A stretch of 64,000 nucleotides of DNA from positions 7,915 to 71,914 of the forward strand of contig PWEA01000005.1 of NCBI GenBank assembly GCA_003553905.1, in the 5' to 3' direction. Positions 31,654-60,397 of this stretch are shown piece after piece; within the stretch, counting starts at the first letter, position 1, and each line of letters begins with the position of its first letter. A program made the position numbers and the translations under genes. Below the pieces are notes generated by a model, which saw only the letters and a list, made by a program, of their open reading frames with translations, was not told the origin of the DNA and did not search any database. The stretch is from Candidatus Aenigmatarchaeota archaeon (lineage in GTDB: Archaea; Aenigmatarchaeota; Aenigmatarchaeia; PWEA01).

Positions 31654-31665
31654 AAGGTGATATAA

Positions 31666-33074: not shown

Positions 33075-33079
33075 GTTAC

Positions 33080-35861: not shown

Positions 35862-37938
35862 GGGCGATAAGGATGACCGCAAAGAAGAGATAAAAAGACT
35901 TCTGGAAAGAAGAAACGAAGGACTCCGGATGCCCGAAAGCAGAAAAAGAACATTCACATCGAGGGAGTACGAAACATTCTTAAAAGAGGAACAGAAGCAG
36001 AGGAAACTATCACTTTACGAAAAACTATGTAATATTGCCGAAAATATAATAGTCGTAGAGCCGTCCGATGAAAAGAGGGAGGAGATGGAACGGTCAATAG
36101 ATATGACCTACATGAATATAACCCCTGAGGGGGCCTACTCTCTAGCCATTCTGTCCGGTATCGGCATCTTTGTCACTGCGATATTACTTATGGTACTGGG
36201 TCTTGCCTCGATAATATTTGGTCTCCTCATGTTTATACTGGGTGGTGTATCAATATACCTCCTCGCAGAATATCCAAATTCGGAGGCCAGGCTTTTCCGG
36301 GTCAAAGCTGCCGATCAGATTATGCTTGCTGTGATATACATGGTCATATACATGCGTACTTCTCCTAACCTCGAAGGTGCAGTTAAATTCACCGCCAAGC
36401 ATCTAGGAGAGCCCCTTTCACTTGATTTCAAAAAACTGCTCTGGGATGTAGAAACCCGAAACTATGTTTCGATGAGGGAAGCCCTTTCCGCCTACCTGGA
36501 AAAGTGGGAAGACAACAAAACCTTCGTGGAAGCTATACAGATAATAGAAGACTCGATGCAACAAGCCGGAGAAAAAAGAAAAAGAATGCTCAACGAAGCA
36601 ATAAACACGATGATGACAGGCTCAAGAGAGATGATGAAAAACTACTCAAACAAACTCGAACTTCCTATACTCGTAATACACGCCCTCGGTATAATGCTTC
36701 CTATCATGGTTCTGATAATGTTCCCTATAATAATGCTTATGCTTGAAGAAACTATCCGGCCTGCGTTTCTCATTCTGGGCTACAATGTTATACTACCGCT
36801 CATAATATATCTAACAGGAAAAAGAACGCTGGAGTACAGGCCGATGGGATTTTCTGAGCCTGACATATCAAAACATCCGGACCACATTCCCTCTGGAATG
36901 ATAAACATCGCAGGTAAGGAGATAAAGATATGGCCTATATCTGTTCTTCTGTCGGTTCCTGTGATAATTACCGGTATCTATCTGGTTAACTTCTACGCAG
37001 GTACAGATATATCAACTCAGCTCTACACGTCAATAATCATAACCATCGGAATAGCACTGGGTCCTTCGAGCTACTTCTACCTCGACTCCAGCGCTAAGCT
37101 CAAGATAAGGAAGGAGGTGAAGGATATCGAGGATGAATTTTCGGAGTCTCTTTTCTCACTGGGTAATATACTCAAGCTGGGTAAGCCAATGGAGAGGGCC
37201 ATGGAAGAAGCTGCTGTAAAAAATAAGGATATGGACATATCGAAGATGTTCGATATAGTCGTAAACAATATCAAAAAGGGTGGGATGAACATCAGGAAGG
37301 CTTTTTTCGATGATGAATACGGTGCAGTGTGGCATTATCCTTCGACACTCATAATATCCGTCATGAAAATCGTCATAGATGCGACAAAAAAGGGTTCCGA
37401 TATTGTCTCTAGGTCAACTATATCAATATCAAAGTATCTACAACAGCTCGATGAGATAGAAGAAGACCTGAAAAATATGCTCTCTTCGGAGACTACTTCT
37501 ATGCAGTTCCTGGGAACGTTTCTTGGACCCTTTGTGGCAGGTGTTTCTGTGGCCATGGCTGCTATAATGATATCAATATTCCAAGGTGTGGGTGGTTCAT
37601 TGGATGCACTGGCAGGAACCGGAACCTCACCCGGTGTTGGAGGTCTAGGTGGGATGGGACTCAATGAAGGCCTAGTAGGTGGATGGGGTTCAGCAGAAAA
37701 TATGATACCCATATCATGGATACAGGTTGTCGTAGGTCTCTATGCTATCCAGACATCCTACCTTCTTTCTATGCTAACATCCGGCATAGAAAACGGTCCC
37801 GGTGACCAAATAAAGAAAAGACAGTCCGCAGCAATTATGATAATGATAGGTGTAATAGTCTACGGTGTTTCAATTGCTGTGGTTTGGCAAATATTCGGAG
37901 GGCAGATATCTGAACTTCTAGCAGCAACCATAAACTGA
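35842..37938 (+). CDS. FlaJ/TadC-like polytopic membrane platform protein
   Basis: 698 aa. Cytoplasmic helical domains alternate with clusters of TM helices, the two-T2SS_F-domain layout. Overlaps the ATPase by 20 nt, suggesting translational coupling. Confidence 0.7.
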   Translation: MNLGMFKGDKDDRKEEIKRLLERRNEGLRMPESRKRTFTSREYETFLKEEQKQRKLSLYEKLCNIAENIIVVEPSDEKREEMERSIDMTYMNITPEGAYSLAILSGIGIFVTAILLMVLGLASIIFGLLMFILGGVSIYLLAEYPNSEARLFRVKAADQIMLAVIYMVIYMRTSPNLEGAVKFTAKHLGEPLSLDFKKLLWDVETRNYVSMREALSAYLEKWEDNKTFVEAIQIIEDSMQQAGEKRKRMLNEAINTMMTGSREMMKNYSNKLELPILVIHALGIMLPIMVLIMFPIIMLMLEETIRPAFLILGYNVILPLIIYLTGKRTLEYRPMGFSEPDISKHPDHIPSGMINIAGKEIKIWPISVLLSVPVIITGIYLVNFYAGTDISTQLYTSIIITIGIALGPSSYFYLDSSAKLKIRKEVKDIEDEFSESLFSLGNILKLGKPMERAMEEAAVKNKDMDISKMFDIVVNNIKKGGMNIRKAFFDDEYGAVWHYPSTLIISVMKIVIDATKKGSDIVSRSTISISKYLQQLDEIEEDLKNMLSSETTSMQFLGTFLGPFVAGVSVAMAAIMISIFQGVGGSLDALAGTGTSPGVGGLGGMGLNEGLVGGWGSAENMIPISWIQVVVGLYAIQTSYLLSMLTSGIENGPGDQIKKRQSAAIMIMIGVIVYGVSIAVVWQIFGGQISELLAATIN

Positions 37939-37987: not shown

Positions 37988-39286
37988 ATGAAGCCGCTCA
38001 ACGACCAGATAGGAGCTTCAACTCTTATCATGATAATAGCCGGGGTAATAATAATACTCATAGCGGGCAGCTTTGCAACAGTACTGATGAGTCGTATTGC
38101 CCAAGACGTACTTGGACAAAGTGTCATGTGTGATACTTTTTGTTCGATGCAGTCTACTGTTAAAGAAGTGACAACACTGGATATGATACCAAGCCCCGGA
38201 CTTACCGGTACACTTGGTTATATTGCCATAGGGGCTGTAATAGGTTCGGTGGTACCGGGAATAGGAACCGCGATAGGAGCAGCGATAGGAGCAATTGTTG
38301 GAGTTGCTATAGCCGCAGTACAACATTTTGCAAGCTGGCTGGGAAGAGATGATGAAGATGTTGCAAGAGATCTGGCAATAGACTACTTGGTTCGCCCCGA
38401 AGGCATGGGTTGTTACTGTGGCGTGTCCAATGCCAGAGGAAAGTATATACACTTTCTGACACCCGGTCCTAGCTCAACCAGGCCACATGTGGCCGAGTTC
38501 CATCTAACAGACCAAACTCCGGAAAAACATCTCCAAGAAGAGATAATAGATACAGATGGAAACACTATATTCAAACACGGTGGTTATGGCCAAAAAAGTA
38601 ACTGTGAAGATGAACTTAGTAAAATAGATGAACTTGACAACGGTGAATACTTAGTCGAACTCGATATATATCCAGGGTGCATAATACTATCAACGACCGA
38701 TGACAACTGTGCAATATGGGCATTCAATGAAACCTTTGCAATAACCAATGAAGAAGGAAAGTCCATAAGGGAACAGGCTGAAGAACAGGATAAAATAATA
38801 TTCGCTAGCACGATAAGGTCCGATGACCCCGTAAACAGCCTGGGTATCGCAGAAGAGATAGAGGCAAGTGGCAGACACGAGTCCCAGAGGATGCTCCTCG
38901 AGCATTACGAAGAAGGTATACACCCATTCCAAGTTCACGTCCCTGTAGTTTGTAAATCTGAAGAAAGAACTGAAAGGCGTGTCCAGGATCCACTTGACAG
39001 GGCATGTAGAGAACAGTGCCATGACGGAAACGCACTTCTATGGGCTTCTAGGTGTTTCGAAGAACCAGAAGATGCCGGGGAAACCTACTATTCACTGGAA
39101 GAAGATTTTCTTCCAGAAGAATATGATGACACCAGAGACTTATGCCCTATGGAAGACGAAGACAACGGAGATGAAGACGGGGGGGAAGATGAAAACAACA
39201 ACGAAGATCGCGGTTATCCCTTCTGTCTCTGTAACACTCCTCGAAGTTATTCATGGGAACTGGACGAAGAATACGCAGAAATATAA
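37988..39286 (+). CDS. Pilin-like protein with Cys-rich acidic extracellular domain (family 1, paralog A)
   Basis: N-terminal hydrophobic helix. Motifs shared with family-1 paralogs: C.TFCSMQ, GMGCYCGV, YIHF, HLTDQTP, DGNTIF, SQRMLL, VVCKS, CREQC, LCP, PFCLC, SWELDEEY. An extra Gly-zipper hydrophobic segment (GAVIGSVVPGIGTAIGAAIGAIVGVAIAAV) is unique to this copy. Confidence 0.65.
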   Translation: MKPLNDQIGASTLIMIIAGVIIILIAGSFATVLMSRIAQDVLGQSVMCDTFCSMQSTVKEVTTLDMIPSPGLTGTLGYIAIGAVIGSVVPGIGTAIGAAIGAIVGVAIAAVQHFASWLGRDDEDVARDLAIDYLVRPEGMGCYCGVSNARGKYIHFLTPGPSSTRPHVAEFHLTDQTPEKHLQEEIIDTDGNTIFKHGGYGQKSNCEDELSKIDELDNGEYLVELDIYPGCIILSTTDDNCAIWAFNETFAITNEEGKSIREQAEEQDKIIFASTIRSDDPVNSLGIAEEIEASGRHESQRMLLEHYEEGIHPFQVHVPVVCKSEERTERRVQDPLDRACREQCHDGNALLWASRCFEEPEDAGETYYSLEEDFLPEEYDDTRDLCPMEDEDNGDEDGGEDENNNEDRGYPFCLCNTPRSYSWELDEEYAEI

Positions 39287-39307
39287 TATCTTGAATTTGT
39301 GATGTAA

Positions 39308-40408
39308 ATGATTGACGAAAAAGGTGGTTCCTTATTACTCATAATAGTTGTAGGTATAATATTATCCCTGATCGTTGGTTCTTTGATGACCGGTGCATTT
39401 AGTGTGGTGGTGAGAACCGTAATCGGAACCGACCTGTCGTGTCCTACATTCTGTGCAGTTCAAGCAGACATAGAGGAGTATAGCATGGCAGATATAATGC
39501 TACCATCGATTCTACCATTCATAGAGGAAAGCTCTGAGGCAACGGCTCATAAAATAGCAGACTGGATAATACAACCGGAAGGGCTTGGCTGTTACTGCGG
39601 CGTCAAAGCAAGAAGTGGAAGATACATCCACTTCCATACAGGTTCACCTGGAGAAAGGTACATAAGAGAGCTTCACTTGACGGACCAAGATCCACATATA
39701 CATCTAGACTATCATGTCAGTGATTCCGATGGAAACACGTTGTTCGACCACAGCTTCGACAAGAGCAGCTGTGAGGAAGACATAAGTAACATAGAAGAAG
39801 TACAGTACTATCAAACCGTTGGCTGTGTAATCGTGGTTAACTCCGAGGGAGGGTACTGCTCTATACATGTAATAGGAGAAGGTTCAGTTATAGAAAACAA
39901 CATAGGTGAAAGCATACACGATCAGGTTGAAATAAAGGAAACATTGACGACAAACTATGAAGACAACGATCCCATTTCATTTTTTAAAATCGGCGACAGA
40001 TACAGCGTACCTCGATTTGCATACGGGACAGGAGATGTCCTGACCTACACGATAGGAACCCAGCCCTACCAGCACGATTCCCAACGAATGCTCCTCCGGG
40101 ACTACGACGAATACCTAGGAGCTAAGTTCGCTCTCTATGCTCCTGTTGTCTGTAGGGCATCAACAAGAGAAGGACAAGATACTCAGACAGAACTCGATGA
40201 AAAATGTAGAAAGCAATGTAAGGAAGACGATAAGATTTTCTTCTCTTCTGCATGCCAAGATATCCCCAGGGAAGGTTATGACATGCTACGTGACGAATAC
40301 CGCGAAGACACTCTCTGTGAAAAGGATGACGAGGGCCCATACTGCAGATGTGTGCACGAGAAACGATACTACTGGGAGGTAGACGAAGATTATTCGAGAG
40401 AAGAATGA
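39308..40408 (+). CDS. Class III signal-peptide (type IV pilin-like) protein with Cys-rich domain (family 1, paralog B)
   Basis: MIDEKG then GSLLLIIVVGIILSLIVGSL. Shared motifs SCPTFCAVQADIEEYS, GLGCYCGV, YIHF, HLTDQDP, DGNTLF, SQRMLL, VVCRAS, CRKQC, LCEK, PYCRC, YYWEVDEDY. Confidence 0.7.
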   Translation: MIDEKGGSLLLIIVVGIILSLIVGSLMTGAFSVVVRTVIGTDLSCPTFCAVQADIEEYSMADIMLPSILPFIEESSEATAHKIADWIIQPEGLGCYCGVKARSGRYIHFHTGSPGERYIRELHLTDQDPHIHLDYHVSDSDGNTLFDHSFDKSSCEEDISNIEEVQYYQTVGCVIVVNSEGGYCSIHVIGEGSVIENNIGESIHDQVEIKETLTTNYEDNDPISFFKIGDRYSVPRFAYGTGDVLTYTIGTQPYQHDSQRMLLRDYDEYLGAKFALYAPVVCRASTREGQDTQTELDEKCRKQCKEDDKIFFSSACQDIPREGYDMLRDEYREDTLCEKDDEGPYCRCVHEKRYYWEVDEDYSREE

Positions 40409-40447
40409 AAAAGTTAAAAACTAAACGAAAACCTATTAAATGATAAT

Positions 40448-40561
40448 ATGGAAGTAAGTATGTCTGTCTTGCTCTGGGTGATTGTAGCCTTTGCTCTGTT
40501 TGTATTTGTAGTAATATTTACCGGTATGTTTTTCGCCGACACGTTTGGAATTTTAATATAA
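40448..40561 (+). CDS. Possible 37-aa hydrophobic micro-protein
   Basis: MEVSMSVLLWVIVAFALFVFVVIFTGMFFADTFGILI is a single TM helix lying between two pilin genes, below the ORF-track cut-off. Confidence 0.2.
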   Translation: MEVSMSVLLWVIVAFALFVFVVIFTGMFFADTFGILI

Positions 40562-40572
40562 TCAAGGATACT

Positions 40573-41850
40573 ATGATCGATCAAAAGGGAGCATCAGTAA
40601 AGGCACTCTTCGTAATCATAATTGTAATGGTGGGTGCATGGGTTTTAATACAAAGTATTGGTCCTATAACCAAAGCTGCCATGGGAACCGAAGTATCCTG
40701 TCCGCTTTTCTGTGATATACAGTCAGGTATAGAAGACTACTCGAGATGGGCATGGTGGCCGGGGTGGCTTGGAGGAAGTGTAAGCTGGTCCGATATATTC
40801 AAAAATGAACTAAGAAGAAACATGGTAGCACCTAAATCAATGGGATGTTACTGTGGTGTACAGGAAGAAAGAGGAAAGTTTATCCATTTCCAGGGGAGTA
40901 CCAGTAGTATACGCGAATTCCACATGACGAATCAGGATCCATTGGTACATCTTAGCCTTGAGGCCGGTCCATTTGACCACAGGCCTACTTCATCGCAAAT
41001 TCGTAATATGTGTCGATCCATCATAGAAGATTACGGAGAAGAGTTCAGTCCACCTGTATACGATCAAAGCGATCTCAATAGAGTTCAAGCATGCATGATT
41101 GTTTCAGAATCACCGGGTTGTGCAATATGGAGATTTGAAGAGGGTTTTGTCATTAGGAGAGACTCTGATGATTCTATATGGGAACAGGCACAGGAACAGG
41201 GAAAAGACATAGGCTTTTTTTCCTTTAATAGAGACGAAGACCCTGTTTCGGATCTAAGCATAGGTGAAACTGTGTATGTATCGGGATCAAAGGACCCCTC
41301 CCAACGGATGTTACTCCAAAAATACGAAAGCGGCGATCAAGATTTCAATCTCTCTGCATCCGTGGTATGTAAAAGTGTTAGAATGGATGAATCTATGCCC
41401 ACAAACGAACTAGACAGGGCTTGCAACGAATACTGCTCGGATGAAAATCTTTTCTTCATGAATTCTAACTGCCTAGAGGAGAGGAGAGGTGGTTATGATA
41501 TCCTTCCAGAAGAATACATAGAAAATGGGAGGGATAAACTCTGCCCTGAAGGAAGAGAACTTCCCTTCTGTCTCTGTGCAGGAGAAAAGGACTACTACTG
41601 GGAAACATACTGGGAAGATTTCTACACAGTAACGGTAGAAACCCAAGGTAGTGGAAATGTGGACATAAGCCCCGACCTGGACGAGTATCACGAAGATCAG
41701 GAAGTATCATTGGAAGCAGAAGCGTACAACGATTGGGAATTTAGCCATTGGGAAGGAGATCATCCACATGGACAAAAAGAAGATGCAGAGATAACGATCA
41801 CGGTAGATGGAGATATGGAAGTAACTGCAGTATTCGAATCGACATCATAG
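40573..41850 (+). CDS. Class III signal-peptide protein with Cys-rich domain (family 1, paralog C) and C-terminal InlB B-repeat-like domain
   Basis: MIDQKG then ASVKALFVIIIVMVGAWVLI. Shared motifs SCPLFCDIQSGIEDYS, MGCYCGV, FIHF, HMTNQDP, SQRMLL, VVCKS, CNEYC, LCPEG, PFCLC, YYWE. C-terminus YTVTVETQGSGNVDISPDLDEYHEDQEVSLEAEAYNDWEFSHWEGD..ITITVDGDMEVTAVFE fits the divergent InlB B-repeat pattern. Confidence 0.7.
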   Translation: MIDQKGASVKALFVIIIVMVGAWVLIQSIGPITKAAMGTEVSCPLFCDIQSGIEDYSRWAWWPGWLGGSVSWSDIFKNELRRNMVAPKSMGCYCGVQEERGKFIHFQGSTSSIREFHMTNQDPLVHLSLEAGPFDHRPTSSQIRNMCRSIIEDYGEEFSPPVYDQSDLNRVQACMIVSESPGCAIWRFEEGFVIRRDSDDSIWEQAQEQGKDIGFFSFNRDEDPVSDLSIGETVYVSGSKDPSQRMLLQKYESGDQDFNLSASVVCKSVRMDESMPTNELDRACNEYCSDENLFFMNSNCLEERRGGYDILPEEYIENGRDKLCPEGRELPFCLCAGEKDYYWETYWEDFYTVTVETQGSGNVDISPDLDEYHEDQEVSLEAEAYNDWEFSHWEGDHPHGQKEDAEITITVDGDMEVTAVFESTS

Positions 41851-41910
41851 GACAGGTCGTGGATTAAAACTTATAATACGCGGTAAACATACATAATAGG
41901 GAGATGTTCC

Positions 41911-42093
41911 ATGAATACGGATTCAAAAAGCCTCTTTTCCAGAGGTGAAATAAGTATACAGGCCCTGGTAGTGATAATTCTAATGTTGATAGGGATCATA
42001 ATCATTGTTATAATATCATCGGGCGTCGGTGACTTTGGAGGAGATGCGTCTTCGACTATAATGGAATATTTAGCAGATGCTATAGGTGCATAA
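41911..42093 (+). CDS. Short pilin-like protein (60 aa)
   Basis: SLFSRG then EISIQALVVIILMLIGIIIIVI. Almost entirely the signal/helix segment, so a candidate structural pilin. Confidence 0.5.
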   Translation: MNTDSKSLFSRGEISIQALVVIILMLIGIIIIVIISSGVGDFGGDASSTIMEYLADAIGA

Positions 42094-42097
42094 AGTT

Positions 42098-42250
42098 ATG
42101 GTACATAATAAAAAGGGGTTCATAAGTTTCGCTATGATTGTGATCATAGTTCTTATAGCTCTAACGGTCGGTATTCTGCTTATACACACCTTTTGGGGAG
42201 GCGGTGAAGGATTGTTAAACCTACTCATCCAAAGGCTTCAACAGGTATAG
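42098..42250 (+). CDS. Short class III signal-peptide pilin (50 aa, not in ORF track)
   Basis: MVHNKKG then FISFAMIVIIVLIALTVGILLIHTFWGGGEGLLNLLIQRLQQV. Textbook archaeal prepilin N-terminus. ATG at 42098, TAG at 42248..42250. Confidence 0.5.
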   Translation: MVHNKKGFISFAMIVIIVLIALTVGILLIHTFWGGGEGLLNLLIQRLQQV

Positions 42251-42259
42251 GTATAAAAT

Positions 42260-42406
42260 ATGTCTACATTTAGCGACACATTAACTGTTTTCGAAAACAA
42301 TACAAAGATAATATTTGCCTTAGTGGTGTTTGCTCTGCTTATAGGCATACTTTACTACACGATAGGTCCTATAATAGATACATTACTGGGGGCTATAGGT
42401 TATTGA
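42260..42406 (+). CDS. Small membrane protein (48 aa, not in ORF track)
   Basis: MSTFSDTLTVFENNTKIIFALVVFALLIGILYYTIGPIIDTLLGAIGY. Single TM helix, no KG cleavage motif. Confidence 0.35.
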   Translation: MSTFSDTLTVFENNTKIIFALVVFALLIGILYYTIGPIIDTLLGAIGY

Positions 42407-42407
42407 T

Positions 42408-43124
42408 ATGAACGTAATCAACAAAAAAGGTTCAAGATCACAGAGTGAGTTCATATTTCTTGCAATAAAGGCAGTGATAGGTATCTTGGTTATAGGAATT
42501 GTTGCCTTGAGTGTTAGGGGCATGGAAACAGGCTGCAGTACACATGACGAAAATCCAACGGCATGTATAAGAAATACCGAATGCAGGCCTGCAGTTAGAA
42601 GAAAGAGAAACATATTCACGTTCTATATTGATCCTGCTCGTACCATAGACCTAATCTACCATACAAAAATAACCGGTGATATAGAATGCCGAGACGCGAT
42701 AAGGACTCCTAACAACAGATACCACGCCGCAGAGGATGCTCAGTGTGTATGTCCTGTTGGATGGGAAGTAATTTTAGACAAGGATGATCAGTACTACGGA
42801 GTCTGCAGACTACCAGGAACTAACGACTATCACCCATGCGAGTATCCACCAGACGGCGAACAGCAAGAAGCAGAATTCAAAGACATGTGTGAAGATGGAG
42901 ACAGATACCACGGAGAAGTCTGGATCGACGGAACAGATGAGGAAGCTCCAAATATGTGCTGCGATGATGGAGATACAAAGGAATGTGACTCCGATAACAT
43001 AGACGAAGAATGTGGCGATTTGGTTTGTATTGAAATAGAGGTCGAGGACGAAGACGGAGAAGAGGAAGAAACCACTTTCTGGATAGAAGAAGAAAGCGTA
43101 CCTGATATAGAATACTTCCTTTAA
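42408..43124 (+). CDS. Class III signal-peptide protein with Cys-rich acidic domain (family 2, paralog A)
   Basis: MNVINKKG then SRSQSEFIFLAIKAVIGILVIGIVAL. Shared with the next gene: ETGCSTHDENPTACIRNTECRPAV, GDIECRDAIRTPNNRYHAAEDAQCVCPVGWE, YYGVC, YHGEVWIDG..MCCDDGDTKECD. Confidence 0.7.
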   Translation: MNVINKKGSRSQSEFIFLAIKAVIGILVIGIVALSVRGMETGCSTHDENPTACIRNTECRPAVRRKRNIFTFYIDPARTIDLIYHTKITGDIECRDAIRTPNNRYHAAEDAQCVCPVGWEVILDKDDQYYGVCRLPGTNDYHPCEYPPDGEQQEAEFKDMCEDGDRYHGEVWIDGTDEEAPNMCCDDGDTKECDSDNIDEECGDLVCIEIEVEDEDGEEEETTFWIEEESVPDIEYFL

Positions 43125-43151
43125 AATACACAAAATAAAAGATGAAGCGGA

Positions 43152-43802
43152 ATGTTTTCAAAAAAAGGTACTGCTAAATCGCAGGAAGAAACACTTTGGT
43201 TTATAATCAAGATAGCTATAATGTTGATAGGAATGGTAGTTTTGATTGTTTCTTTACTCGAGATGGAGGCAGGCTGCAGTAGACACGATGAAAATCCATC
43301 GGCATGTGTAAGCGATGAAAACTGCAGACCCGCAGTTAAAACATTTGACCTAGGATGGGGTTTATATGGTTTCTCTCAAATCGAAGTAGTGGGTGAGATC
43401 GAATGCCGGGAATCTGTGAGAAAACCCAATACAAGATATCATGCAGCCCAAGATGGAAAATGCGTATGCCCTGGTTTCTGGAACGAAATCATGGACAGGG
43501 ACCATGACTACTTTGGTGTGTGTTATACTGAATATGACGGAGAAGAAATGTACTATCCATGCCAGTACGGCCTGGATGTTCAGGCTGAGGAAATAAAAGA
43601 CAGATGCGATACCGACAACGGTCTTAGAATGCACGGAGAAGTATGGGGCTCCGGTTGGAATGTTCCAGATAGATGCTGCGACGATGGTGAAGTAAAGAAA
43701 TGTGGGATAGATAAAAGAGGTGAAACTTGTGCAGACCATACCTGTAAATCCGGTCCAGCAATGCATGATGTTGTTATAGTCAACTACTATTGGCAGCCAT
43801 AA
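43152..43802 (+). CDS. Class III signal-peptide protein with Cys-rich domain (family 2, paralog B)
   Basis: MFSKKG then TAKSQEETLWFIIKIAIMLIGMVVLIV. EAGCSRHDENPSACVSDENCRPAV, GEIECRESVRKPNTRYHAAQDGKCVCPGFWNE, YFGVC, MHGEVWGSG..RCCDDGEVKKCG. Confidence 0.7.
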   Translation: MFSKKGTAKSQEETLWFIIKIAIMLIGMVVLIVSLLEMEAGCSRHDENPSACVSDENCRPAVKTFDLGWGLYGFSQIEVVGEIECRESVRKPNTRYHAAQDGKCVCPGFWNEIMDRDHDYFGVCYTEYDGEEMYYPCQYGLDVQAEEIKDRCDTDNGLRMHGEVWGSGWNVPDRCCDDGEVKKCGIDKRGETCADHTCKSGPAMHDVVIVNYYWQP

Positions 43803-43847
43803 ACCACATTTACACCTTTCAAAAAGATTTAAACGAACACGACAAAG

Positions 43848-44270
43848 TTGTATATGATGAACACCCCAGCAAAGGGCATAGGCGTAGGAAAGTCTCTTAT
43901 GTTAATATTGATACTGGTAGTACTCATATTTACAACGGTCGTAATAGGTGACATCTTTACATCTGTTCTTGGTATGGGTATAGGAGATGAGTTCCACCTC
44001 ACAATGGGTGAGTTGTCTGTATCCTACACTACATCTAGCTCTTTTCAGGAAAAAACAGAAATAGAAGAAAATCTTCCGATGGCCTGCGAAAGAGTTGTAT
44101 TTAGAAACAACACACTAAAGGCTTATCTAGAACATGATGAATTCTACTTCGTTTCCTACACTACACAGGAAATGGATGAAGATTTCGAGGTAGAATGTGA
44201 TTCCTTTGGTGGGGTGAAGTTTATTGACGGGAGGATTGAAGCCTCTAGCCCGGTTGATGGAACATTGTGA
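43848..44270 (+). CDS. Class III signal-peptide (pilin-like) protein
   Basis: MNTPAKG then IGVGKSLMLILILVVLIFTTVVIG. 140 aa. Confidence 0.6.
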   Translation: MYMMNTPAKGIGVGKSLMLILILVVLIFTTVVIGDIFTSVLGMGIGDEFHLTMGELSVSYTTSSSFQEKTEIEENLPMACERVVFRNNTLKAYLEHDEFYFVSYTTQEMDEDFEVECDSFGGVKFIDGRIEASSPVDGTL

Positions 44271-45169
44271 TTATGATGACAAGGATAGATAACAAAGGAA
44301 CAACCGGAGGAGACTATATATGGTATATACTATTTGTGATAGTAACAATAACCTATCTATATGCCTTTTACGCAATATTCATGGCCGGTTCAACAGTAGA
44401 TGTTGAGGGAATTGAAAGAACTCAAGGAAGACTACAGGGTTCTGCTGCTTATACAAGATTGTTATCATATCCCAACTTCGTCTCGACGGGAGAGATCGGT
44501 GTATTCGATAAATCATCTCTCGATTCGAAGAACGGTACAGAGAAGCTAGAGGAACTCTACAACCCATCACTCTGGATTTATATTGAGATAGAAAACACCG
44601 AAAATGATGATAAGTATATATTCGGTACACCAGGACCAAAGAAGGCAACCGAAGAATGGATAGCTGAGGACGGGTATATGAGTACCTGGGACGATGAAGA
44701 TGAAATGAGCTTTTGGGATCATATGTCCGCCAAATATAGTACAATGGTAAACATAGACACCGGCGACGGCTTCGATCTAGCTAAACTACATTTTTACTTC
44801 CGACAAATACCCGATCCTGTATTGAGCCTGAAAAGGGGTGCCCATATAGCCAAGGAGGAAGGAAGCCATACAGTCACATTGTTTCACCCAACGTCAGGCT
44901 GTAAAATTTATGCACAAGATAGATATGGGAGAGCTCAGTGTTTCGTCCGCGAAGATCCTTTTGTAATAGATACAAGTCAATCTGATAAAATAAAGGACGA
45001 CTTCGGTGAATACATGCATCTGAAAGGCATAGAACTGAAGGCATTCGACGATGATGAGGAAGAGTTCGAGATAGACCCGCCCGGTAGGTTTACAGAAGGA
45101 AAGACGAGGTTAGAACTAGCCCACACCGGCGGCAAAACGGTAGAGTATGAAATAGTCGATAGTTGGTAA
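44267..45169 (+). CDS. Class III signal-peptide (pilin-like) protein
   Basis: MTRIDNKG then TTGGDYIWYILFVIVTITYLYAFYAIFMAG. 300-aa acidic globular domain. 4-nt overlap with the upstream gene. Confidence 0.6.
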   Translation: MIMMTRIDNKGTTGGDYIWYILFVIVTITYLYAFYAIFMAGSTVDVEGIERTQGRLQGSAAYTRLLSYPNFVSTGEIGVFDKSSLDSKNGTEKLEELYNPSLWIYIEIENTENDDKYIFGTPGPKKATEEWIAEDGYMSTWDDEDEMSFWDHMSAKYSTMVNIDTGDGFDLAKLHFYFRQIPDPVLSLKRGAHIAKEEGSHTVTLFHPTSGCKIYAQDRYGRAQCFVREDPFVIDTSQSDKIKDDFGEYMHLKGIELKAFDDDEEEFEIDPPGRFTEGKTRLELAHTGGKTVEYEIVDSW

Positions 45170-45170
45170 A

Positions 45171-45701
45171 ATGAAAAAAAGAATCGGTAAAAAGGGTGGC
45201 TTTATGATCTTGCTAGCTACGCTTATATTCACCGCCGTGTTCTTAATTACTTTGTTTATAGTCGGTCCCTTCGTTGGAGGAGCACAGATGGAAATAGAGG
45301 TAATGTCAGAAGACCCTGCCAGATTCAGTATAGAGAAAAATACGCTTCTAAGAACCAATGAAACAAAAAGAAAACTCATGGCTTTCGGAGAAGGAGACGG
45401 GTCGGTAGACGAATCTATCGCCAAGACAAGCGACAAATTTGGAGAAGCTGATTCGGGCTCTCATATACTGCTTTTCCAGTTCGAAGGGGACGATGACATA
45501 GAAAGGGTGGGTTTCCTTTGTTTAGACGACTGCGGGCATATAAGTGGATATGATGAAGAGTTTAAAGCAATTCTACAAAATTCAAAAGTAATAGCACCTA
45601 GACCCATAATGCTCCCGGAAGGTGGAATGGGATCCTCATATTCGATCTATTATGATCCAGATGAAGTCGCATCAGATATTATGGACGGTGTGATGTACTG
45701 A
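45171..45701 (+). CDS. Class III signal-peptide (pilin-like) protein
   Basis: MKKRIGKKG then GFMILLATLIFTAVFLITLFIVG. 176 aa. Confidence 0.6.
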   Translation: MKKRIGKKGGFMILLATLIFTAVFLITLFIVGPFVGGAQMEIEVMSEDPARFSIEKNTLLRTNETKRKLMAFGEGDGSVDESIAKTSDKFGEADSGSHILLFQFEGDDDIERVGFLCLDDCGHISGYDEEFKAILQNSKVIAPRPIMLPEGGMGSSYSIYYDPDEVASDIMDGVMY

Positions 45702-45708
45702 TGATAAA

Positions 45709-46272
45709 ATGTTAGGAGATAAAGGAATAAAGGTTACGATTGTGGTCTTAGCAGCCGTACTGATAGCCATCTCTCTGGCAACTACAGTAATTGTAGGAGT
45801 ACTATCATACCAAGGTCAGGAGCAGTCCTGGTTCGGGCAGAGTGAAAGAGTTACAGCAAAGGTTCAGTTTGACCATGCTCTGGAAGCTATAGAAGATTCG
45901 TTTTTGTTAGGTATATACTGGGGTATACGGGAATCAGGTAGCGACTGGGAAGACGCAAGTGAATCCCTTGAAGAAGAAATAGAGGAGAAAATAGATGATT
46001 ATCTGACTAAGTTAGAGGGTTTCTACAGAGGCGAATACGATACGCAACCGTTCCGACTCGAAACGATGATACAGATAAATGACGTCGATATAGAAGTAGA
46101 TTTGGATGAGGACGAGGAAACCATAGATAGGGTAGAATTATCAGGTAATCTGACTTCTTACAGGAACCAGCCCTCGATAACAATATCCGATGATTTCTAC
46201 TTCAGTGAAAACTTTAACGAAGACTATTCAGACCTCTATGACATGGCTCGTAATCCATTAGAAAATATGTAA
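45709..46272 (+). CDS. Class III signal-peptide (pilin-like) protein
   Basis: MLGDKG then IKVTIVVLAAVLIAISLATTVIVGV. 187 aa, acidic. Confidence 0.6.
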   Translation: MLGDKGIKVTIVVLAAVLIAISLATTVIVGVLSYQGQEQSWFGQSERVTAKVQFDHALEAIEDSFLLGIYWGIRESGSDWEDASESLEEEIEEKIDDYLTKLEGFYRGEYDTQPFRLETMIQINDVDIEVDLDEDEETIDRVELSGNLTSYRNQPSITISDDFYFSENFNEDYSDLYDMARNPLENM

Positions 46273-46301
46273 ATTTTATAAGAAAGGGGGAGATATTTAA
46301 C

Positions 46302-47288
46302 ATGAAGATGAATCAAAAGGGATCCAAGTCTATGATGGCTTTAGTAGTTCTTATAATTCTAGGTGTTTTGGTAATATTTGTTTTTTCCACAACATCGGGA
46401 TCTTTTTTGGAGATTTCAGAAGGTCTTATGGACATAGGCGAGGAGGAGGCAAGAAGGGTTCATAGGAAGTTCAAATACCCTATTTTAAAACACGAGCTCC
46501 CGGAAGAAGAATTTCCCGGAGAGGGGTCAGGACGGATTGTGACCTCATGTAAATCAATAGGTTCAGAAGGTGAATATCAGCTCCAAGACTCTATAAGATG
46601 TTCAGATCACGAACCAATCCGAGAGTTCAGCGGGACGCTGGACGGTCGTGGTCACAGTATATATGGTTTAGATGAGCCACTATTTGAAACGATATCTTCC
46701 TCGGGAACCGTAAAAAATATTAGAATCTCGGAAGTAGATATATTTGAGGAAGGTCCTGCAGGTGGTCTTTCTGTAGAAAACCAAGGAACCATCAAAAGAA
46801 TCCGTATTTCCGGGATGGTTCAAGGCGAAAGTAACGTTGGCGGTCTTGTTGGAACAAACAGTGGAGAGATACGGAAATCTTCCTCCACGGCAAATGTAGA
46901 TGGAGATCAAAATGTAGGAGTACTGGTAGGACAACATACCTCCGGTTCCGTAACAAATTCTTACACGGTCGGCTCTGTAGAAGGTATATCAAATGTAGGG
47001 GGACTAATAGGATCAGGAAGTGGACAGGTAGATAAAACATACGCAGCTAGTTTTGTAACCGGACTCACAAACAAACAAGGCTTGGTCGGTTCCGGTTCTG
47101 CTGGGGCAGTGACAAACTCCTTCTGGAGTACTGACACATCCGGAATTCTTCCTGGAGATATCTCTGGAAGTGTTATAGGAACACCGAAAGTTGACGAAGC
47201 CATGGAAGACAAGGCAACATTTGTTTCCACAAGAACGGAAGGCCTCGTAGATCCCTGGGACTTCGATGAAATATGGACTATGGGATAA
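46302..47288 (+). CDS. Class III signal-peptide protein with GLUG-like repeat domain
   Basis: MKMNQKG then SKSMMALVVLIILGVLVIFVF. Central repeats NVGGLVGTNSGEI..NVGVLVGQHTSGSVTNSYTVGSVEGISNVGGLIGSGSGQV..GLVGSGSAGAVTNSFW fit the GLUG motif (GGLVG.N.G.I.NSYATG.V.G). Confidence 0.65.
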   Translation: MKMNQKGSKSMMALVVLIILGVLVIFVFSTTSGSFLEISEGLMDIGEEEARRVHRKFKYPILKHELPEEEFPGEGSGRIVTSCKSIGSEGEYQLQDSIRCSDHEPIREFSGTLDGRGHSIYGLDEPLFETISSSGTVKNIRISEVDIFEEGPAGGLSVENQGTIKRIRISGMVQGESNVGGLVGTNSGEIRKSSSTANVDGDQNVGVLVGQHTSGSVTNSYTVGSVEGISNVGGLIGSGSGQVDKTYAASFVTGLTNKQGLVGSGSAGAVTNSFWSTDTSGILPGDISGSVIGTPKVDEAMEDKATFVSTRTEGLVDPWDFDEIWTMG

Positions 47289-47290
47289 AA

Positions 47291-47452
47291 ATGAACTACG
47301 CTCTTCGAACCAGAGGACTACAGTTTAATATCCTTGTTTATATAATACTTGGAATACTTTTGATAGGTGTGATTGCTGCTCTTGCCCTGACTACAGAGGG
47401 GCTCTTCGAAGGATTTTTTGACCTAATGAAAGAACTGATACTTTCAGGGTGA
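47291..47452 (+). CDS. Short class III signal-peptide pilin (53 aa, not in ORF track)
   Basis: MNYALRTRG then LQFNILVYIILGILLIGVIAALAL. ATG 47291, TGA 47450..47452. Confidence 0.45.
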   Translation: MNYALRTRGLQFNILVYIILGILLIGVIAALALTTEGLFEGFFDLMKELILSG

Positions 47453-47497
47453 GGACAGACCGTAAGTTTTAAATCCAATAGGTAACAACCTTTAACC

Positions 47498-47755
47498 ATG
47501 AAAATCAAGTCCGGGAAGAGATTAAAGCCTCTACATCTCGGAGCTCTGGTTTTGAGTTTGATAGTGATCCTATCCATCATAGTTTTTAGTCTGGACGTAA
47601 CAGAAGGACCAGGTGAGGAAGATGAGATGGGCAGGTCTTGTGTAGGATACCTACAGAGGAATTGTTGCAGTAACCCCGGAGCAGTTCGATGCCAAGAATT
47701 CGAAAACGAAATATGGACACACCAAGAAGATCCATTTGATGTATGTTGTGAATAA
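47498..47755 (+). CDS. Small TM-anchored Cys-rich protein (family 3)
   Basis: N-terminal helix LHLGALVLSLIVILSIIVF, then SCVGYLQRNCCSNPGAVRCQEFE..DVCCE, a C..CC..C..CC pattern shared with the next gene. Confidence 0.5.
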   Translation: MKIKSGKRLKPLHLGALVLSLIVILSIIVFSLDVTEGPGEEDEMGRSCVGYLQRNCCSNPGAVRCQEFENEIWTHQEDPFDVCCE

Positions 47756-47758
47756 ACT

Positions 47759-48070
47759 ATGTTAAGTAAAAAGGGTATGGACGCGATAAGAATAATAAGG
47801 GTATTTATAATAACATTACTCATTCTCTTTGCTCTTCTTGCCCTCTGGGTAGGCACAGGAGATGCAGGTCTAACGGAAATAGAGTTCGATGGAAAGATGA
47901 GGATAGCCTGTAATAGATTTGAAAACAGGGGTTGTTGTAGAAGCTACGACGAAGAAGATCCCGGACAGTGTGCTGTAGATAAGGTATGGGAAGGCTACGA
48001 CGAAGAAGAAATGGACGAAGAGCTTATAGAAAGGCTGGAAGAAGTCGATTGGGAACAAAGGTGTTGTTGA
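47759..48070 (+). CDS. Class III signal-peptide Cys-rich small protein (family 3)
   Basis: MLSKKG then MDAIRIIRVFIITLLILFALLAL. IACNRFENRGCCRSYDEEDPGQCAVD..EQRCC. Confidence 0.55.
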   Translation: MLSKKGMDAIRIIRVFIITLLILFALLALWVGTGDAGLTEIEFDGKMRIACNRFENRGCCRSYDEEDPGQCAVDKVWEGYDEEEMDEELIERLEEVDWEQRCC

Positions 48071-48071
48071 A

Positions 48072-48323
48072 ATGAAAGAAAAGGGTATATCGCTTGCGAT
48101 AAGGACCGTTGTAATCTTGATTATCTCTATACTCATACTACTTGCAGTTATCACCATGTTTACAGATGTATGGGATGTAAGTCCCTTTGAAGACACTAAA
48201 GGAAATATTTCCGAGGAATACGGACCGGATTGGGGTAATGGGGAAGAAAATGGCCAAGAAAGTTACAATACCTTTTCTTTAAGCAGTCTATCCGAAACCA
48301 CACATTCACTGTCTAGTCTTTAA
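48072..48323 (+). CDS. Class III signal-peptide (pilin-like) protein
   Basis: MKEKG then ISLAIRTVVILIISILILLAVITMF. 83 aa, S-rich tail. Confidence 0.55.
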   Translation: MKEKGISLAIRTVVILIISILILLAVITMFTDVWDVSPFEDTKGNISEEYGPDWGNGEENGQESYNTFSLSSLSETTHSLSSL

Positions 48324-55680: not shown

Positions 55681-56535
55681 ATGCCGATGCCCGACGTCGA
55701 TGAGACTGTAAAAAAGATAAAGAACCTTGAAATACAGGGAGCACAGTCAATAGCAAAGGAAAGTCTTAAAGTTCTTTCGAAGATAGTCGAAGAAGAAGGG
55801 TTCGGTGAAAAATTCGAAGAAGCAGCAGAAAGATTGAAAAATGCGCGTCCCACGGGAGTATCAGCACATAACTGCATAAACTTTGTTAAAAGAAGGGGAG
55901 AGATAGAAGCCATAGACGCAACCCTAGACTATCTAAACACCGCAAAAAACGAAGCGGGTAAAGTAGTCGCAGATATTGTAAAGGACGAATCCGTAATACT
56001 GACACATTGTCACTCTTCTGCTGTTATAGCAGCTTTTAGGAGTATGCTGGATATGGACAGAAACTTCCGTGTGATAGTTACAGAAACCGAGCCAAAGCTA
56101 CAAGGCGTTAAAACAGCAAAAAAGCTCAATGAGATGAACATACCTGTCAATTATATAGTAGATGCAGCAGCCGGGCTATATATGTGGGCTGCAGACTACG
56201 TGTTTGTTGGCGTGGATTCGATAAGGCCTTCTGGTGTCCTGAACAAGATAGGAACATATATGCTATCCCTTGCTGCGAAGGAGGATCCTGATACGGAGTT
56301 TTACTTCATAGCTACAAAGGACAAATTCGACTACGACAACTTCTCAACACTGGAAGAGAGATCGCCTGATGAAATACGGGAACACGAATACCTTGAGAAA
56401 GAACACGAACTGGTACTAGAAAATCCTGCCTTTGATATGACACCCTGGGCAAATATAGACAAACTAATAACGGAAGACGGTGTAATGAAAAAACATGAAA
56501 TAATAGAAGAGTTAAAAGGAAGGTTCACAATATAG
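55681..56535 (+). CDS. Ribose-1,5-bisphosphate isomerase (eIF-2B alpha/beta/delta family, e2b2)
   Basis: eIF-2B-family fold signature (ILTHCHSSAVI, Rossmann-like segments). Immediately upstream of type III RuBisCO. Confidence 0.7.
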   Translation: MPMPDVDETVKKIKNLEIQGAQSIAKESLKVLSKIVEEEGFGEKFEEAAERLKNARPTGVSAHNCINFVKRRGEIEAIDATLDYLNTAKNEAGKVVADIVKDESVILTHCHSSAVIAAFRSMLDMDRNFRVIVTETEPKLQGVKTAKKLNEMNIPVNYIVDAAAGLYMWAADYVFVGVDSIRPSGVLNKIGTYMLSLAAKEDPDTEFYFIATKDKFDYDNFSTLEERSPDEIREHEYLEKEHELVLENPAFDMTPWANIDKLITEDGVMKKHEIIEELKGRFTI

Positions 56536-56553
56536 ATAGAGAGGGATGAATTT

Positions 56554-57816: not shown

Positions 57817-58070
57817 TAAATATAGGATGGCTAGGAGCTATTTTACTGCTAGCAGCATGGCTACCCGAAACCATAACCACAATGAAAACAGAAAGCCTAG
57901 AAGCACTGGACCCAAAATTCATTTTCTTTAGTCTGCTTGGATCCATGTCACTTGCACTACATTCCTACAGGATAGGAGATCTTGCTTTTCTATTTATGAA
58001 TACGATCTTGTCGATTGTGGTAGCCATTGAGCTGGTTGTTTATTTTTATAAATCAAAGTCCACCGTTTAG
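57804..58070 (+). CDS. Small membrane protein (uncertain)
   Basis: 88 aa, three hydrophobic helices. Overlaps the rbcL end by 13 nt. Could be spurious. Confidence 0.3.
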   Translation: MGKMINIGWLGAILLLAAWLPETITTMKTESLEALDPKFIFFSLLGSMSLALHSYRIGDLAFLFMNTILSIVVAIELVVYFYKSKSTV

Positions 58071-58080
58071 TTGTGTTAAA

Positions 58081-60343: not shown

Positions 60344-60397
60344 TACCTATAGTTTATCTGAACTACTTAAAAACTTGTTGTCGAGAAACGCTGATCT

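Follow-up and report, generated by a model that had tools for sequence, protein, structure and literature searches.

GLUG repeats in a pilin-like protein encoded in a type IV pilus operon of an Aenigmatarchaeota-like archaeon

We find that a 328-aa pilin-like protein encoded in the window, i.e., the whole stretch of 64,000 nucleotides that was analysed, contains tandem GLUG repeats behind a class III-like N-terminus, which confirms as a whole an observation made in an earlier note on this DNA. The protein is best explained, with a probability of about 0.6, as a minor, modular pilin-like protein at the surface of a DPANN archaeon (Aenigmatarchaeota-like), where it would present an adhesive beta-helix. 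Based on this explanation, the carrier would consist of a hydrophobic N-terminal helix behind a short leader of class III type, and it would be joined through a conserved linker of ~45 residues to the cargo, the GLUG beta-solenoid.

Architecture of the gene and its protein

Upstream of the gene, on the same strand and either overlapping or separated by short gaps, lie the genes of an ATPase (FlaI/CpaF-like) and of a platform protein (TadC/T2SSF-like). An SD-like GGGGGAG is present ~9 nt 5' of the ATG of the GLUG protein gene. The features are as follows.

33579..35861, + strand: ATPase of type IV filament assembly, 760 aa, its N-terminus carrying a long extension (NCBIfam FlaI 2e-40, TadA 1e-32)
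35842..37938, + strand: polytopic platform protein, TadC/FlaJ/PilC-like, 698 aa, its gene overlapping the ATPase gene (T2SSF of its homologues)
37988..48323, + strand: 16 ORFs in a row, each with a class III-like N-terminus; the GLUG protein is the 13th among those detected (motif scan)
46302..47288, + strand: GLUG pilin-like protein gene, complete, stop codon included, 328 aa (ORF list)
46302..46322, + strand: putative class III leader MKMNQKG, residues 1-7 (motif scan; predicted cleavage after G7, K at -2)
46323..46391, + strand: hydrophobic N-terminal helix, residues 8-30, SKSMMALVVLIILGVLVIFVFST (AF2 helix 9-33; hydrophobicity count 17/18)
46392..46532, + strand: linker, residues 31-77 (low-confidence model, conserved sequence EGL.D.GE...FKYP.L..EL)
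46533..46751, + strand: N-terminal cap and first beta-helix coils, residues 78-150 (Pfam, alignment, pLDDT ~97 from residue 80)
46752..46829, + strand: degenerate GLUG unit 0, residues 151-176, GPAGGLSVENQGTIKRIRISGMVQGE (weak unit-HMM match, residues 160-175; modelled as a beta-helix coil)
46830..46907, + strand: GLUG unit 1, residues 177-202 (unit HMM i-E 9e-12; best Pfam Glug stretch 175-199)
46908..46988, + strand: GLUG unit 2, residues 203-229 (unit HMM i-E 1e-7, match 208-228)
46989..47066, + strand: GLUG unit 3, residues 230-255 (unit HMM i-E 1.3e-7, match 230-254; offset-53 self-match to unit 1)
47067..47141, + strand: GLUG unit 4, residues 256-280, leading into an NSFWSTDTSG motif (unit HMM i-E 7.5e-5, match 260-274)
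47142..47285, + strand: C-terminal cap ...GTPK..EAME......GL..PWDF.EIW (family consensus; pLDDT 87-96)

The helix of residues 8-30 would be either a pilin-type alpha1-N or a membrane anchor. In the linker, the columns E40, G41, L42, D44, G46, E47, F57, K58, Y59 and P60 are invariant in an alignment of three orthologues, and the KYPIL motif is also found in L029:21141, an elongated orthologue of the protein. Residues 78-150 include the invariant C83 and C100 and the motif F.G.LDGRG..I, and overlap a match to Peptidase_M26_N (residues 108-171). The interval 46750..47160 in which the repeats had been placed before corresponds to residues 150-287 and coincides exactly with the repeat region. The C-terminal cap is common to bacterial and archaeal GLUG proteins, with the family consensus NSFWD..TSG...GGTGKTT.EM....W(D)F. 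It is noted that an identical protein (P0001) is present on public contigs of up to 82 kb.

Identity of the repeats

The Pfam model Glug (PF07581) matches the protein in two stretches with 28.9 bits (E 1.2e-6) against a gathering cut-off of 20.5, which bears out the previous assignment of the GLUG motif. Peptidase_M26_N also matches, with 28.6 bits against a cut-off of 27.7, the match covering only the N-terminal beta-helix part of that model (positions 182-250). The orthologues P0002 and P0003 reach 19.1 and 19.0 bits, respectively, with Glug, just under the cut-off, and both pass Peptidase_M26_N.

The internal repetition is equally clear. In a self-comparison with BLOSUM62 and 20-aa windows the best offsets are 53 (score 69), 26 (score 52) and 27 (score 41), while in 500 whole-protein shuffles the maximum averages 26.9 (sd 4.3) and is at highest 51, and shuffling the Gly/Ser-rich sub-region alone gives at highest 48. 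The two leading offsets thus stand above all shuffles, and therefore the repeats are not an artefact of composition, a low-complexity Gly/Ser origin being excluded. A 27-position unit HMM with the consensus SNVGGLVGTNSGGTISNSYATGSVTGD, built only from non-orthologous homologues, finds four significant GLUG units, none with an i-E above 7.5e-5. The units repeat with a basic period of 26-27 aa, and residues 151-280 hold the four clear ones together with a degenerate one. The tandem units, of ~26-28 aa, have the GG[LIV][VAI]G core and the N-S-[YF] turn, and the family-typical caps, F.G.[FL]DG.G..I on the N-terminal side and NSFW...TSG...G..K...M....W.F on the C-terminal side, are found as well (from the consensus of 116 homologues and from individual sequences). 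The earlier note had described three imperfect repeats; the repeats are real, but the 51-aa pattern that it had in view is an A-B double unit occurring twice plus a half degenerate copy, i.e., about 2.5 times. The A-B alternation itself is supported by the strongest self-match, at offset 53.

At the DNA level, TRF detects no tandem repeat, and therefore the repeats are old and exist at the protein level only, a recent DNA duplication being rejected as their origin. The Glug family is very large, with ~29,000 cluster representatives at an E of 1e-10 or better in a profile search of a 1.84-billion representative library; this search yielded no further pilin-type orthologues, giant multi-GLUG proteins dominating it.

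Predicted fold and catalytic potential

The AlphaFold2 model (pLDDT 87.4, pTM 0.81) consists of a helix of residues 9-33, a low-confidence linker (residues 31-55 with pLDDT below 50) and a beta-solenoid with pLDDT of ~97. As modelled, the solenoid is right-handed and compact, with about seven coils, four to five of them being GLUG units, and is closed by the family-typical N- and C-caps. No pilin globular head is present in the model, there being no beta-rich head on which an alpha1 helix would pack.

The likeness to IgA-protease-associated regions that had been pointed out before holds both by sequence and by predicted fold. With the model, Foldseek returns 3N6Z at 1.2e-5 and 6XJA/6XJB/7UVK at 3-5e-4, every other match having E > 0.1, and phmmer against the PDB finds the IgA1 proteases 7UVL (6e-9) and 6XJA (2e-7). 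Among solved structures, the N-terminal GLUG beta-helix of the IgA1 proteases and 3N6Z are thus the only significant matches. The repeat family, as defined by Pfam Glug and by Peptidase_M26_N in its C-terminal part, is common to the protein, to the M26 IgA1 metalloproteases (the N-terminal domain, ~781-1070, of S. pneumoniae IgA1P, 6XJA/6XJB/7JGJ, and the G. haemolysans enzyme, 7UVK/7UVL) and to B. ovatus BACOVA_03286 (3N6Z), which is a stand-alone GLUG beta-helix. Like the helices of IgA1P and 3N6Z, that of the protein is predicted to be small and smooth, with no inserted domains. By contrast to the IgA1 proteases, which have 1,300-2,200 residues and a cell-wall anchor, the 328-aa archaeal protein has a class III-like N-terminus and lacks the protease, G5 and LPXTG parts. 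Moreover, no HExxH or other zinc-metalloprotease catalytic region is present in its sequence, and the full-length NCBIfam models ZmpA, ZmpB and ZmpC give only 15-24 bits with cut-offs of 3000. An annotation as IgA1 protease (M26, ZmpA/B/C) is rejected, with the catalytic part missing. It is also noted that the beta-helix of IgA1P contacts the IgA1 Fab in a cryo-EM complex (PMC7695701), and it therefore provides a precedent for protein binding.

The N-terminus and the surrounding operon

According to the published rule for class III signal peptides, the H-domain directly follows a G, A or S at -1, which is itself preceded by a charged residue at -2 (PMC4371748). The N-terminus MKMNQK(-2)G(-1)/SKSMMALVVLIILGVLVIFVFS, the slash marking the predicted cleavage site, agrees with it, having K6, G7 and a hydrophobic stretch of ~20 residues, and the Epd pilins of M. 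maripaludis are processed at KG/ (PMC4371748). The KG is kept in the orthologues of L009 and L028, while two orthologues have no charged residue at -2 (KIG/S in L010 and RSG/V in L029). After the predicted cleavage, the protein would begin with SKSMM..., whose Lys at +2 is unusual in a helix of the filament core. The curated HMMs for class III or pilin N-termini (e.g., Pfam Class_IIIsignal and Pilin_N, and the TIGR archaeal flagellin N-terminal model) give no match at E <=1 in Pfam or <=0.01 in NCBIfam, nor do such models match any of the neighbouring ORFs, Pfam scans of the small pilin-like ones giving no hit at all. The bacterial N_methyl / IPR012902 motif (G/F..xE) does not match the protein either, no Glu being present at +5.

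The genomic context points to a filament system. The ATPase also matches Pfam T2SSE (57.7 bits) as well as PDB 2OAP, CpaF and FlaI. The platform protein, in which a hydropathy scan gives seven hydrophobic segments, is identified as such because its homologues (35-68% identity) are annotated with PF00482 T2SSF and carry the JGI name 'Flp pilus assembly protein TadB'; its own Pfam scan gives nothing beyond a weak Spore_III_AB match, it has no match among PDB sequences, and BLASTP of its two halves reveals no internal duplication. Then follow the 16 ORFs with the motif M-x(2-14)-[KRQN]x?G and a hydrophobic stretch, several of which have large Cys-rich globular parts; the same class III-like array is present in L009, L010 and L028. 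The pilus operon is syntenic in soda-lake Aenigmatarchaeota MAGs, and the KG motif is kept across orthologous operons with no more than 37-66% identity. In the same habitats, further archaeal GLUG proteins have Sec-type signals and PGF-CTERM-like tails instead, and the KG-type N-terminus is thus specific to the operon-encoded ones. Taken together, the published rule, the motif of the 16 ORFs, the orthologous operons and the type IV pilus ATPase and platform protein support the class III signal peptide claimed earlier, which we call putative, with cleavage after G7 predicted from the sequence. Candidate small major pilins are found elsewhere in the window, at 60017-60733. No prepilin peptidase (PibD/FlaK/EppA) is present among the scanned ORFs of the 64-kb window, and a scan for sigma-70 promoters and intrinsic terminators, which is ill-suited to archaea, showed no enrichment.

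Relatives and carriers

A contig search with the single protein gave no relatives, while a profile search with an alignment of three sequences succeeded, and additional pilin-type orthologues were obtained by walking out from the platform protein. In L029, besides the elongated orthologue, the protein of 16949-18391 has a GLUG helix (E 1e-23) behind an N-terminus homologous to that of the window's 43848-44270 (E 7e-8), whereas in L030 the operon core is kept and a non-GLUG protein occupies the slot. The GLUG helix thus sits on two different pilin-like carriers in related operons. Among bacteria, the Firmicutes-like P0061 has a canonical prepilin end, MNDKNG/FTIVEML (N_methyl 20.2 bits), and nine GLUG units, and the Chloroflexi homologues P0017, P0019 and P0047, of similar size, have a single GLUG helix on a lipoprotein-type anchor. 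We take IPR011493 to be the GLUG entry. In a catalogue of modular pilins from bacteria, the combination IPR012902-IPR011493 has six entries (PMC8179133). The domain combination, which had been called unusual, is therefore rare but not unique, occurring on two carriers in the archaeal clade, in P0061 and in these six catalogue entries.

Discussion

We propose the following pathway for the minor pilin-like protein. It would be inserted by Sec, and MKMNQKG would then be removed by a prepilin peptidase of the PibD/FlaK type. The ATPase and the platform protein, whose genes open the operon, would take up the freed hydrophobic helix, and the pilus would incorporate the protein as a minor subunit of low abundance, most likely at its tip because a beta-helix of 25 kDa cannot pack in the filament body. 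There the beta-helix would bind a ligand on a host cell or surface. The cleavage, the incorporation with the tip position and the adhesion role with its ligand are what we infer. We know of no GLUG domain for which an adhesin function has been demonstrated.

Alternatively, the protein could be a membrane-anchored surface protein rather than a filament subunit, its N-terminus being an uncleaved signal-anchor or a long Sec signal and its beta-helix standing on a flexible stalk at the cell envelope or at the base or collar of the pilus, co-expressed with the pilus and never polymerised. The helix of ~25 residues is followed by a linker of low confidence and by no pilin head, and therefore it may be a plain membrane anchor. 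The lack of class III HMM matches and of a peptidase in the 64-kb window, the Lys at +2, the variation of the -2 position among the orthologues and the lipoprotein-type anchors of the Chloroflexi homologues are also consistent with this arrangement. However, a KG precedes the H-domain in 16 consecutive ORFs and is kept across the diverged operons, the archaeal GLUG proteins outside such operons do not have it, and the linker has been conserved instead of drifting freely. We thus consider plain anchoring unlikely.

The class III leader could also serve a short, non-protruding type IV filament, bindosome-like or pseudopilus-like, that keeps binding proteins, the GLUG helix included, near the membrane, with the role of capturing substrates or partner-cell components rather than of long-range adhesion. 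In the bindosomes of Sulfolobales, it is established that binding proteins other than pilins carry class III signal peptides, an arrangement proposed to be widespread (bioRxiv 10.64898/2026.04.22.720090), and the unusually many class III-like genes of the operon (16 or more), several with large Cys-rich globular parts, would be in line with such a display. By contrast, the operon has no substrate-binding-protein domains and no adjacent ABC transporter, and the candidate small major pilins at 60017-60733 also speak against such a display near the membrane, which we consider improbable. Parallel beta-helices are frequent in pectate lyases and phage tailspikes. An enzymatic or accessory role of the helix (acting as a glycan lyase or hydrolase, or gating the substrate for a partner protease), with the pilus carrying it to a host envelope that it would modify, is highly improbable: although pectate lyases and phage tailspikes occur among the weak Foldseek matches (E 0.16-1.7) and the GLUG helix works within a protease in the IgA1 enzymes, these fold matches are not significant, the 328 aa hold neither a catalytic domain nor HExxH, the Zmp models stay far below their cut-offs, and the modelled helix appears to lack the protruding loops typical of lyase active sites because its 26-27 aa period is regular.

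How DPANN archaea recognise their hosts and attach to them is largely obscure, with type IV pili being the prime suspects. A pilus-operon protein with an identifiable, well-folded and separately expressible module of binding type (residues 78-328) is a concrete candidate for host attachment. In one operon family, the same cargo is found on different carriers while the ATPase and the platform protein are conserved. It is tempting to speculate further, with the odds against it, that the pilus operon of haloalkaliphilic Aenigmatarchaeota is a cassette system which swaps binding modules such as the GLUG beta-helix, Flg_new_2 and Cys-rich heads among pilin-like carriers and so re-targets the pilus to different host cells. 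The GLUG pilin would then determine the host specificity of a DPANN episymbiont, having acquired its cargo from GLUG surface proteins that are common in the surrounding sediment community.

The proposed design resembles the bacterial modular type IV pilins, such as PilB with a vWA module and PilC with a lectin module in S. sanguinis and other architectures of IPR012902 plus an extra domain (PMC8179133). In both cases, a carrier with a prepilin-type N-terminus, a linker and a bulky module of ligand-binding type are encoded in a pilus operon among several minor pilins. The class III-like N-terminus joined to the independently known GLUG domain corresponds to a modular pilin sensu Raynaud et al. 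2021. In contrast to the bacterial ones, the protein has an archaeal KG/ leader with no G/F..xE N-methylation motif, and its helix leads to the cargo with no detectable globular pilin module in between. The modular pilin idea, a design already known in bacteria, is thereby extended to archaea.

Among archaea, the sugar-binding proteins of the Sulfolobales bindosome have a class III leader and helix that present a functional domain via a type IV filament machine, as we propose here. [quoted passage not shown] Different from both, the present protein carries a GLUG beta-helix as cargo and comes from a DPANN archaeon, and in the literature searched we found no description of GLUG as the cargo of class III-signal proteins.

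Finally, we note that the operon provides a new context for the GLUG motif, which is very abundant and functionally uncharacterised, being termed 'of unknown function' in the literature (PMC9723798). Methanimicrococcus blatticola has acquired 15 membrane-bound GLUG proteins (PMC9723798). These and the PGF-CTERM proteins of haloalkaliphilic Thermoplasmata, i.e., the archaeal GLUG 'adhesin-like proteins', have the repeat family and the presumed cell-surface role in common with the present protein; unlike it, they are large proteins with Sec signals and C-terminal anchors whose genes lie outside pilus operons.

The GLUG gene and its repeats

The GLUG gene (46302..47288, + strand) is a real open reading frame that encodes 328 aa, with an SD-like GGGGGAG about 9 nt upstream of its ATG, and an identical copy of the protein is encoded on public contigs, the longest of them 82 kb. 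The earlier note claimed three copies of a 51-aa pattern at 46750..47160, which corresponds to residues 150-287. In self-comparison of the protein (BLOSUM62, windows of 20 residues) the top matches are at offsets 53 (score 69), 26 (52) and 27 (41), while the maxima of 500 shuffles have a mean of 26.9 (sd 4.3; highest 51) and the Gly/Ser-rich sub-region shuffled alone gives a top score of 48. Based on these scores, the periodicity is no effect of composition. Moreover, a unit HMM of 27 positions, made from 400 units of non-orthologous homologues only (consensus SNVGGLVGTNSGGTISNSYATGSVTGD), matches significantly at four places, residues 177-202, 208-228, 230-254 and 260-274 (i-E 9e-12 to 7.5e-5), preceded by one degenerate unit, and therefore the basic period is 26-27 aa. 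The repeats thus stand but the count of three does not, the arrangement being two copies of an A-B double unit and one half of a weak third. At the DNA level no tandem repeat was found.

Family and fold of the repeat domain

The GLUG motif recognised by eye is borne out by Pfam Glug PF07581 (28.9 bits, cut-off 20.5), and the domain belongs to the GLUG family, whose N-terminal cap it has as F.G.LDGRG..I and whose C-terminal cap it has as NSFWSTDTSG...GTPK..EAME...GL..PWDF.EIW. The family is large, a profile search giving 48,962 cluster representatives at E <=1e-3 and 29,120 at <=1e-10, with numerous giant multi-domain proteins among the matches.

The AlphaFold2 model (116 homologues as input; mean pLDDT 87.4, pTM 0.81) shows a predicted beta-helix fold: a helix (residues 9-33) and a stretch of pLDDT <50 (residues 31-55) come first, and from about residue 80 the chain forms a regular beta-solenoid (pLDDT ~97), with 3-4 short strands per 26-27-residue coil. 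Its Foldseek relatives in the PDB are 3N6Z, a B. ovatus 'putative IgA1 protease' (1.2e-5), and IgA1-protease structures (3-5e-4), with pectate lyases, the L. reuteri SRRP adhesin and phage tailspikes appearing only at E >0.1; phmmer against the PDB likewise gives IgA1 proteases only (7UVL, 6e-9; 6XJA, 2e-7). Pfam Peptidase_M26_N aligns the last 70 positions of its model with residues 108-171 (28.6 bits, cut-off 27.7). It is noted that in the S. pneumoniae IgA1 protease the corresponding small smooth beta-helix (residues 781-1070) touches the IgA1 Fab and serves as a gate (PMC7695701). An identity as an IgA1 protease itself is rejected, since the HExxH motif is absent from the 328 aa, this length is too small for the protease, and NCBIfam ZmpA/B/C give only local matches of 15-24 bits, far under their cut-offs of 3000.

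The pilus operon and the N-terminus

The genes of the operon and its surroundings, and two pilin-like genes elsewhere in the window, are as follows.

Genes in and around the pilus operon, and pilin-like genes unlinked to it
29479-32268, +: a tandem set of five small polytopic membrane paralogues (184, 159, 165, 164, 200 aa)
32280-33481, -: two acidic coiled-coil proteins (264, 133 aa), divergent from the pilus ATPase
33579-35861, +: pilus ATPase, 760 aa (NCBIfam FlaI 2e-40, TadA 1e-32; Pfam T2SSE 57.7 bits)
35842-37938, +: platform protein, 698 aa, polytopic membrane protein, overlapping the ATPase gene
37988-41850, +: three paralogous Cys-rich pilin-like proteins (432, 366, 425 aa)
42408-43802, +: two paralogous Cys-rich pilin-like proteins (238, 216 aa), KG being separated from the hydrophobic segment by 6-8 polar residues
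60017-60343 and 60398-60733, -: two tandem ~110-aa proteins starting ...KG|[IV][ST]LPINMLVILAVAVIVLLA ('|', predicted cleavage site)

The PDB relatives of the ATPase are A. fulgidus GspE 2OAP, CpaF and FlaI. The Pfam scan of the platform protein itself gave no match, and its homologues of 35-68% identity in Aenigmatarchaeota, Nanoarchaeota and Woesearchaeota carry PF00482 T2SSF and the JGI name 'Flp pilus assembly protein TadB'. With these two assignments, the operon therefore consists of a type IV filament core that is spread across DPANN, with a long array of accessory genes behind it. At the C-terminus of the third Cys-rich paralogue (425 aa) lies a Flg_new_2 / InlB B-repeat domain (PF18998, 36 bits), a module that is a frequent companion of GLUG in bacterial surface proteins. 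The five small membrane paralogues have a common 'LPWLLTxAIVYGVLSQLGDG'-type motif and no Pfam family. The ATPase has an N-terminal extension of ~280 aa (33579-34400) that opens with a cluster of Cys residues, CDYEY...C.GC...C, resembling a zinc-binding element.

A simple scan for class III-like starts matched 22 of all 383 window ORFs of >=40 aa, and 16 of these, including the GLUG gene, are consecutive on the + strand (37988-48323), directly downstream of the ATPase and platform genes. The GLUG protein starts MKMNQKG|SKSMMALVVLIILGVLVIFVFS; by the published rule, archaeal prepilins have G/A/S in position -1 and a charge in position -2, with the H-domain following, the M. maripaludis Epd pilins having KG|Q (PMC4371748). 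Curated class III and pilin HMMs gave no match on the GLUG protein, the ATPase, the platform protein or the array ORFs scanned, and a prepilin peptidase was not found among the scanned ORFs of the 64-kb window. The two tandem ~110-aa proteins, without Pfam match and unlinked to the operon, are the best candidates for the major pilin. Also distant from the operon, a 228-aa protein (8297-8983, +) with no family match has the class III-like start MKKG|ISTSVLLAVIAATLLLAGG.

Related operons and other GLUG proteins

The nearest species-representative genomes, soda-lake sediment MAGs of Candidatus Aenigmatarchaeota, represented by PWHK01000020 (78% identity) and PWIB01000020 (44%), have operons in full synteny with the window. 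The synteny extends to the neighbouring genes for threonine synthase, OGG and form III RuBisCO, and the two orthologues, starting MKEKG|FMFG... and ...NKIG|SLEF..., keep the N-terminal motif. Three further operons were reached by walking out from the platform protein. In L028 (platform 71% identical) a 326-aa GLUG orthologue occupies the equivalent slot. Two GLUG proteins are encoded in L029 (GCA_046540935.1; platform 68% identical).

GLUG loci of L029
16949-18391 and 21141-22088, JBKHEG010000001.1: one on a different carrier; the other of 734 aa with an ALK_LTK_GRD glycine-rich domain

The elongated 734-aa orthologue aligns from residue 1 (E 9e-26); in the 480-aa protein the first 94 residues are homologous to another member of the operon, the window product of 43848-44270 (E 7e-8), and a GLUG helix makes up the C-terminal part (E 1e-23 against the window GLUG protein). 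In L030 (platform 57% identical) both core genes, for the ATPase and the platform protein, are retained, but the slot is filled by an unrelated acidic protein of 383 aa, and almost none of the accessory genes are in common with the window. The cargo is shuffled in operons whose core is conserved (ATPase 77-80% identical between operons, platform protein 57-77%); accessory proteins of the window and of the related operon L010, the GLUG one included, are 37-66% identical. Upstream of the operon, L028-L030 have a gene run similar to that at 29479-32268 and similar-sized genes at the position equivalent to 32280-33481.

Further GLUG proteins of archaea in comparable habitats (Thermoplasmata, another Aenigmatarchaeota MAG) have 580-2,300 aa, Sec-type signals and PGF-CTERM-like tails, and therefore the KG-type N-terminus is specific to the operon-encoded versions.

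GLUG proteins with PGF-CTERM-like tails, IPGFTSTLLLLALVI...KKK
L012 9140-10849; L014, L018, L020: haloalkaliphilic Thermoplasmata and another Aenigmatarchaeota MAG

These tails imply archaeosortase-type anchoring in those lineages. Among the 120 closest database homologues, a prepilin-like start occurs only in the orthologues and in one bacterial, Firmicutes-like protein of 562 aa with nine GLUG units, whose N-terminus MNDKNG|FTIVEML is of the canonical prepilin type (N_methyl 20.2 bits, cut-off 21.2).

Locus of the bacterial homologue
L027 1423-3111 (ENA ERZ28668719 scaffold_7404): alone beside the housekeeping genes PGK, TIM, Spo0A and RecA

Interpretation

As the best-supported reading we propose, with a probability of about 0.6, that the window protein is a modular pilin-like protein with GLUG cargo, probably a minor tip subunit with an adhesive module. 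The beta-helix would be presented via the pilus machine on a carrier of class III type, joined to it by the conserved linker, with the protein probably a minor subunit at the pilus tip and the helix acting as the binding module. The analysis shows the family, the predicted fold, the N-terminal motif, the operon context and the shuffling of the cargo; cleavage, polymerisation, location and ligand are inferences. We take IPR011493 to be the GLUG entry. The architecture matches the bacterial 'modular pilin' concept, the dataset of which has IPR012902-IPR011493 six times (PMC8179133). It also matches the archaeal use of class III signals on functional proteins, such as bindosome binding proteins and the SPIII galactose-binding protein of the Epd locus, in a study that describes archaeal loci with adhesin-like and beta-helical proteins and makes no mention of GLUG or Aenigmatarchaeota (bioRxiv 10.64898/2026.04.22.720090).

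That the protein is instead an anchored surface protein, never polymerised, is unlikely beside its KG-type start and place in the array; in its favour are the short N-terminal helix, the missing pilin head, a Lys in position +2 and the absence of HMM matches. A bindosome-like short display structure, which the class III likeness would also suit, is quite improbable, and an enzymatic beta-helix, with pectate lyases at E >0.1 only, is very doubtful. The GLUG protein is of moderate interest, mainly because it offers a concrete candidate, open to testing, for how DPANN archaea attach to hosts, and because its operons show module shuffling inside one operon family; literature searches on GLUG in archaea yielded only putative adhesin-like proteins 'of unknown function'.

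Other genes of the window

The 493-aa protein at 24922-26403 (- strand), with an N-terminal signal-like segment, an HETTH (HExxH) motif and no Pfam family, may be an unclassified secreted metalloprotease. Three successive genes at 55681-59556 (+ strand) encode an e2b2/IF-2B-like isomerase, the large subunit of a form III RuBisCO and an AMP-phosphorylase-like protein, and this trio is the archaeal AMP salvage module, which is common in DPANN genomes.
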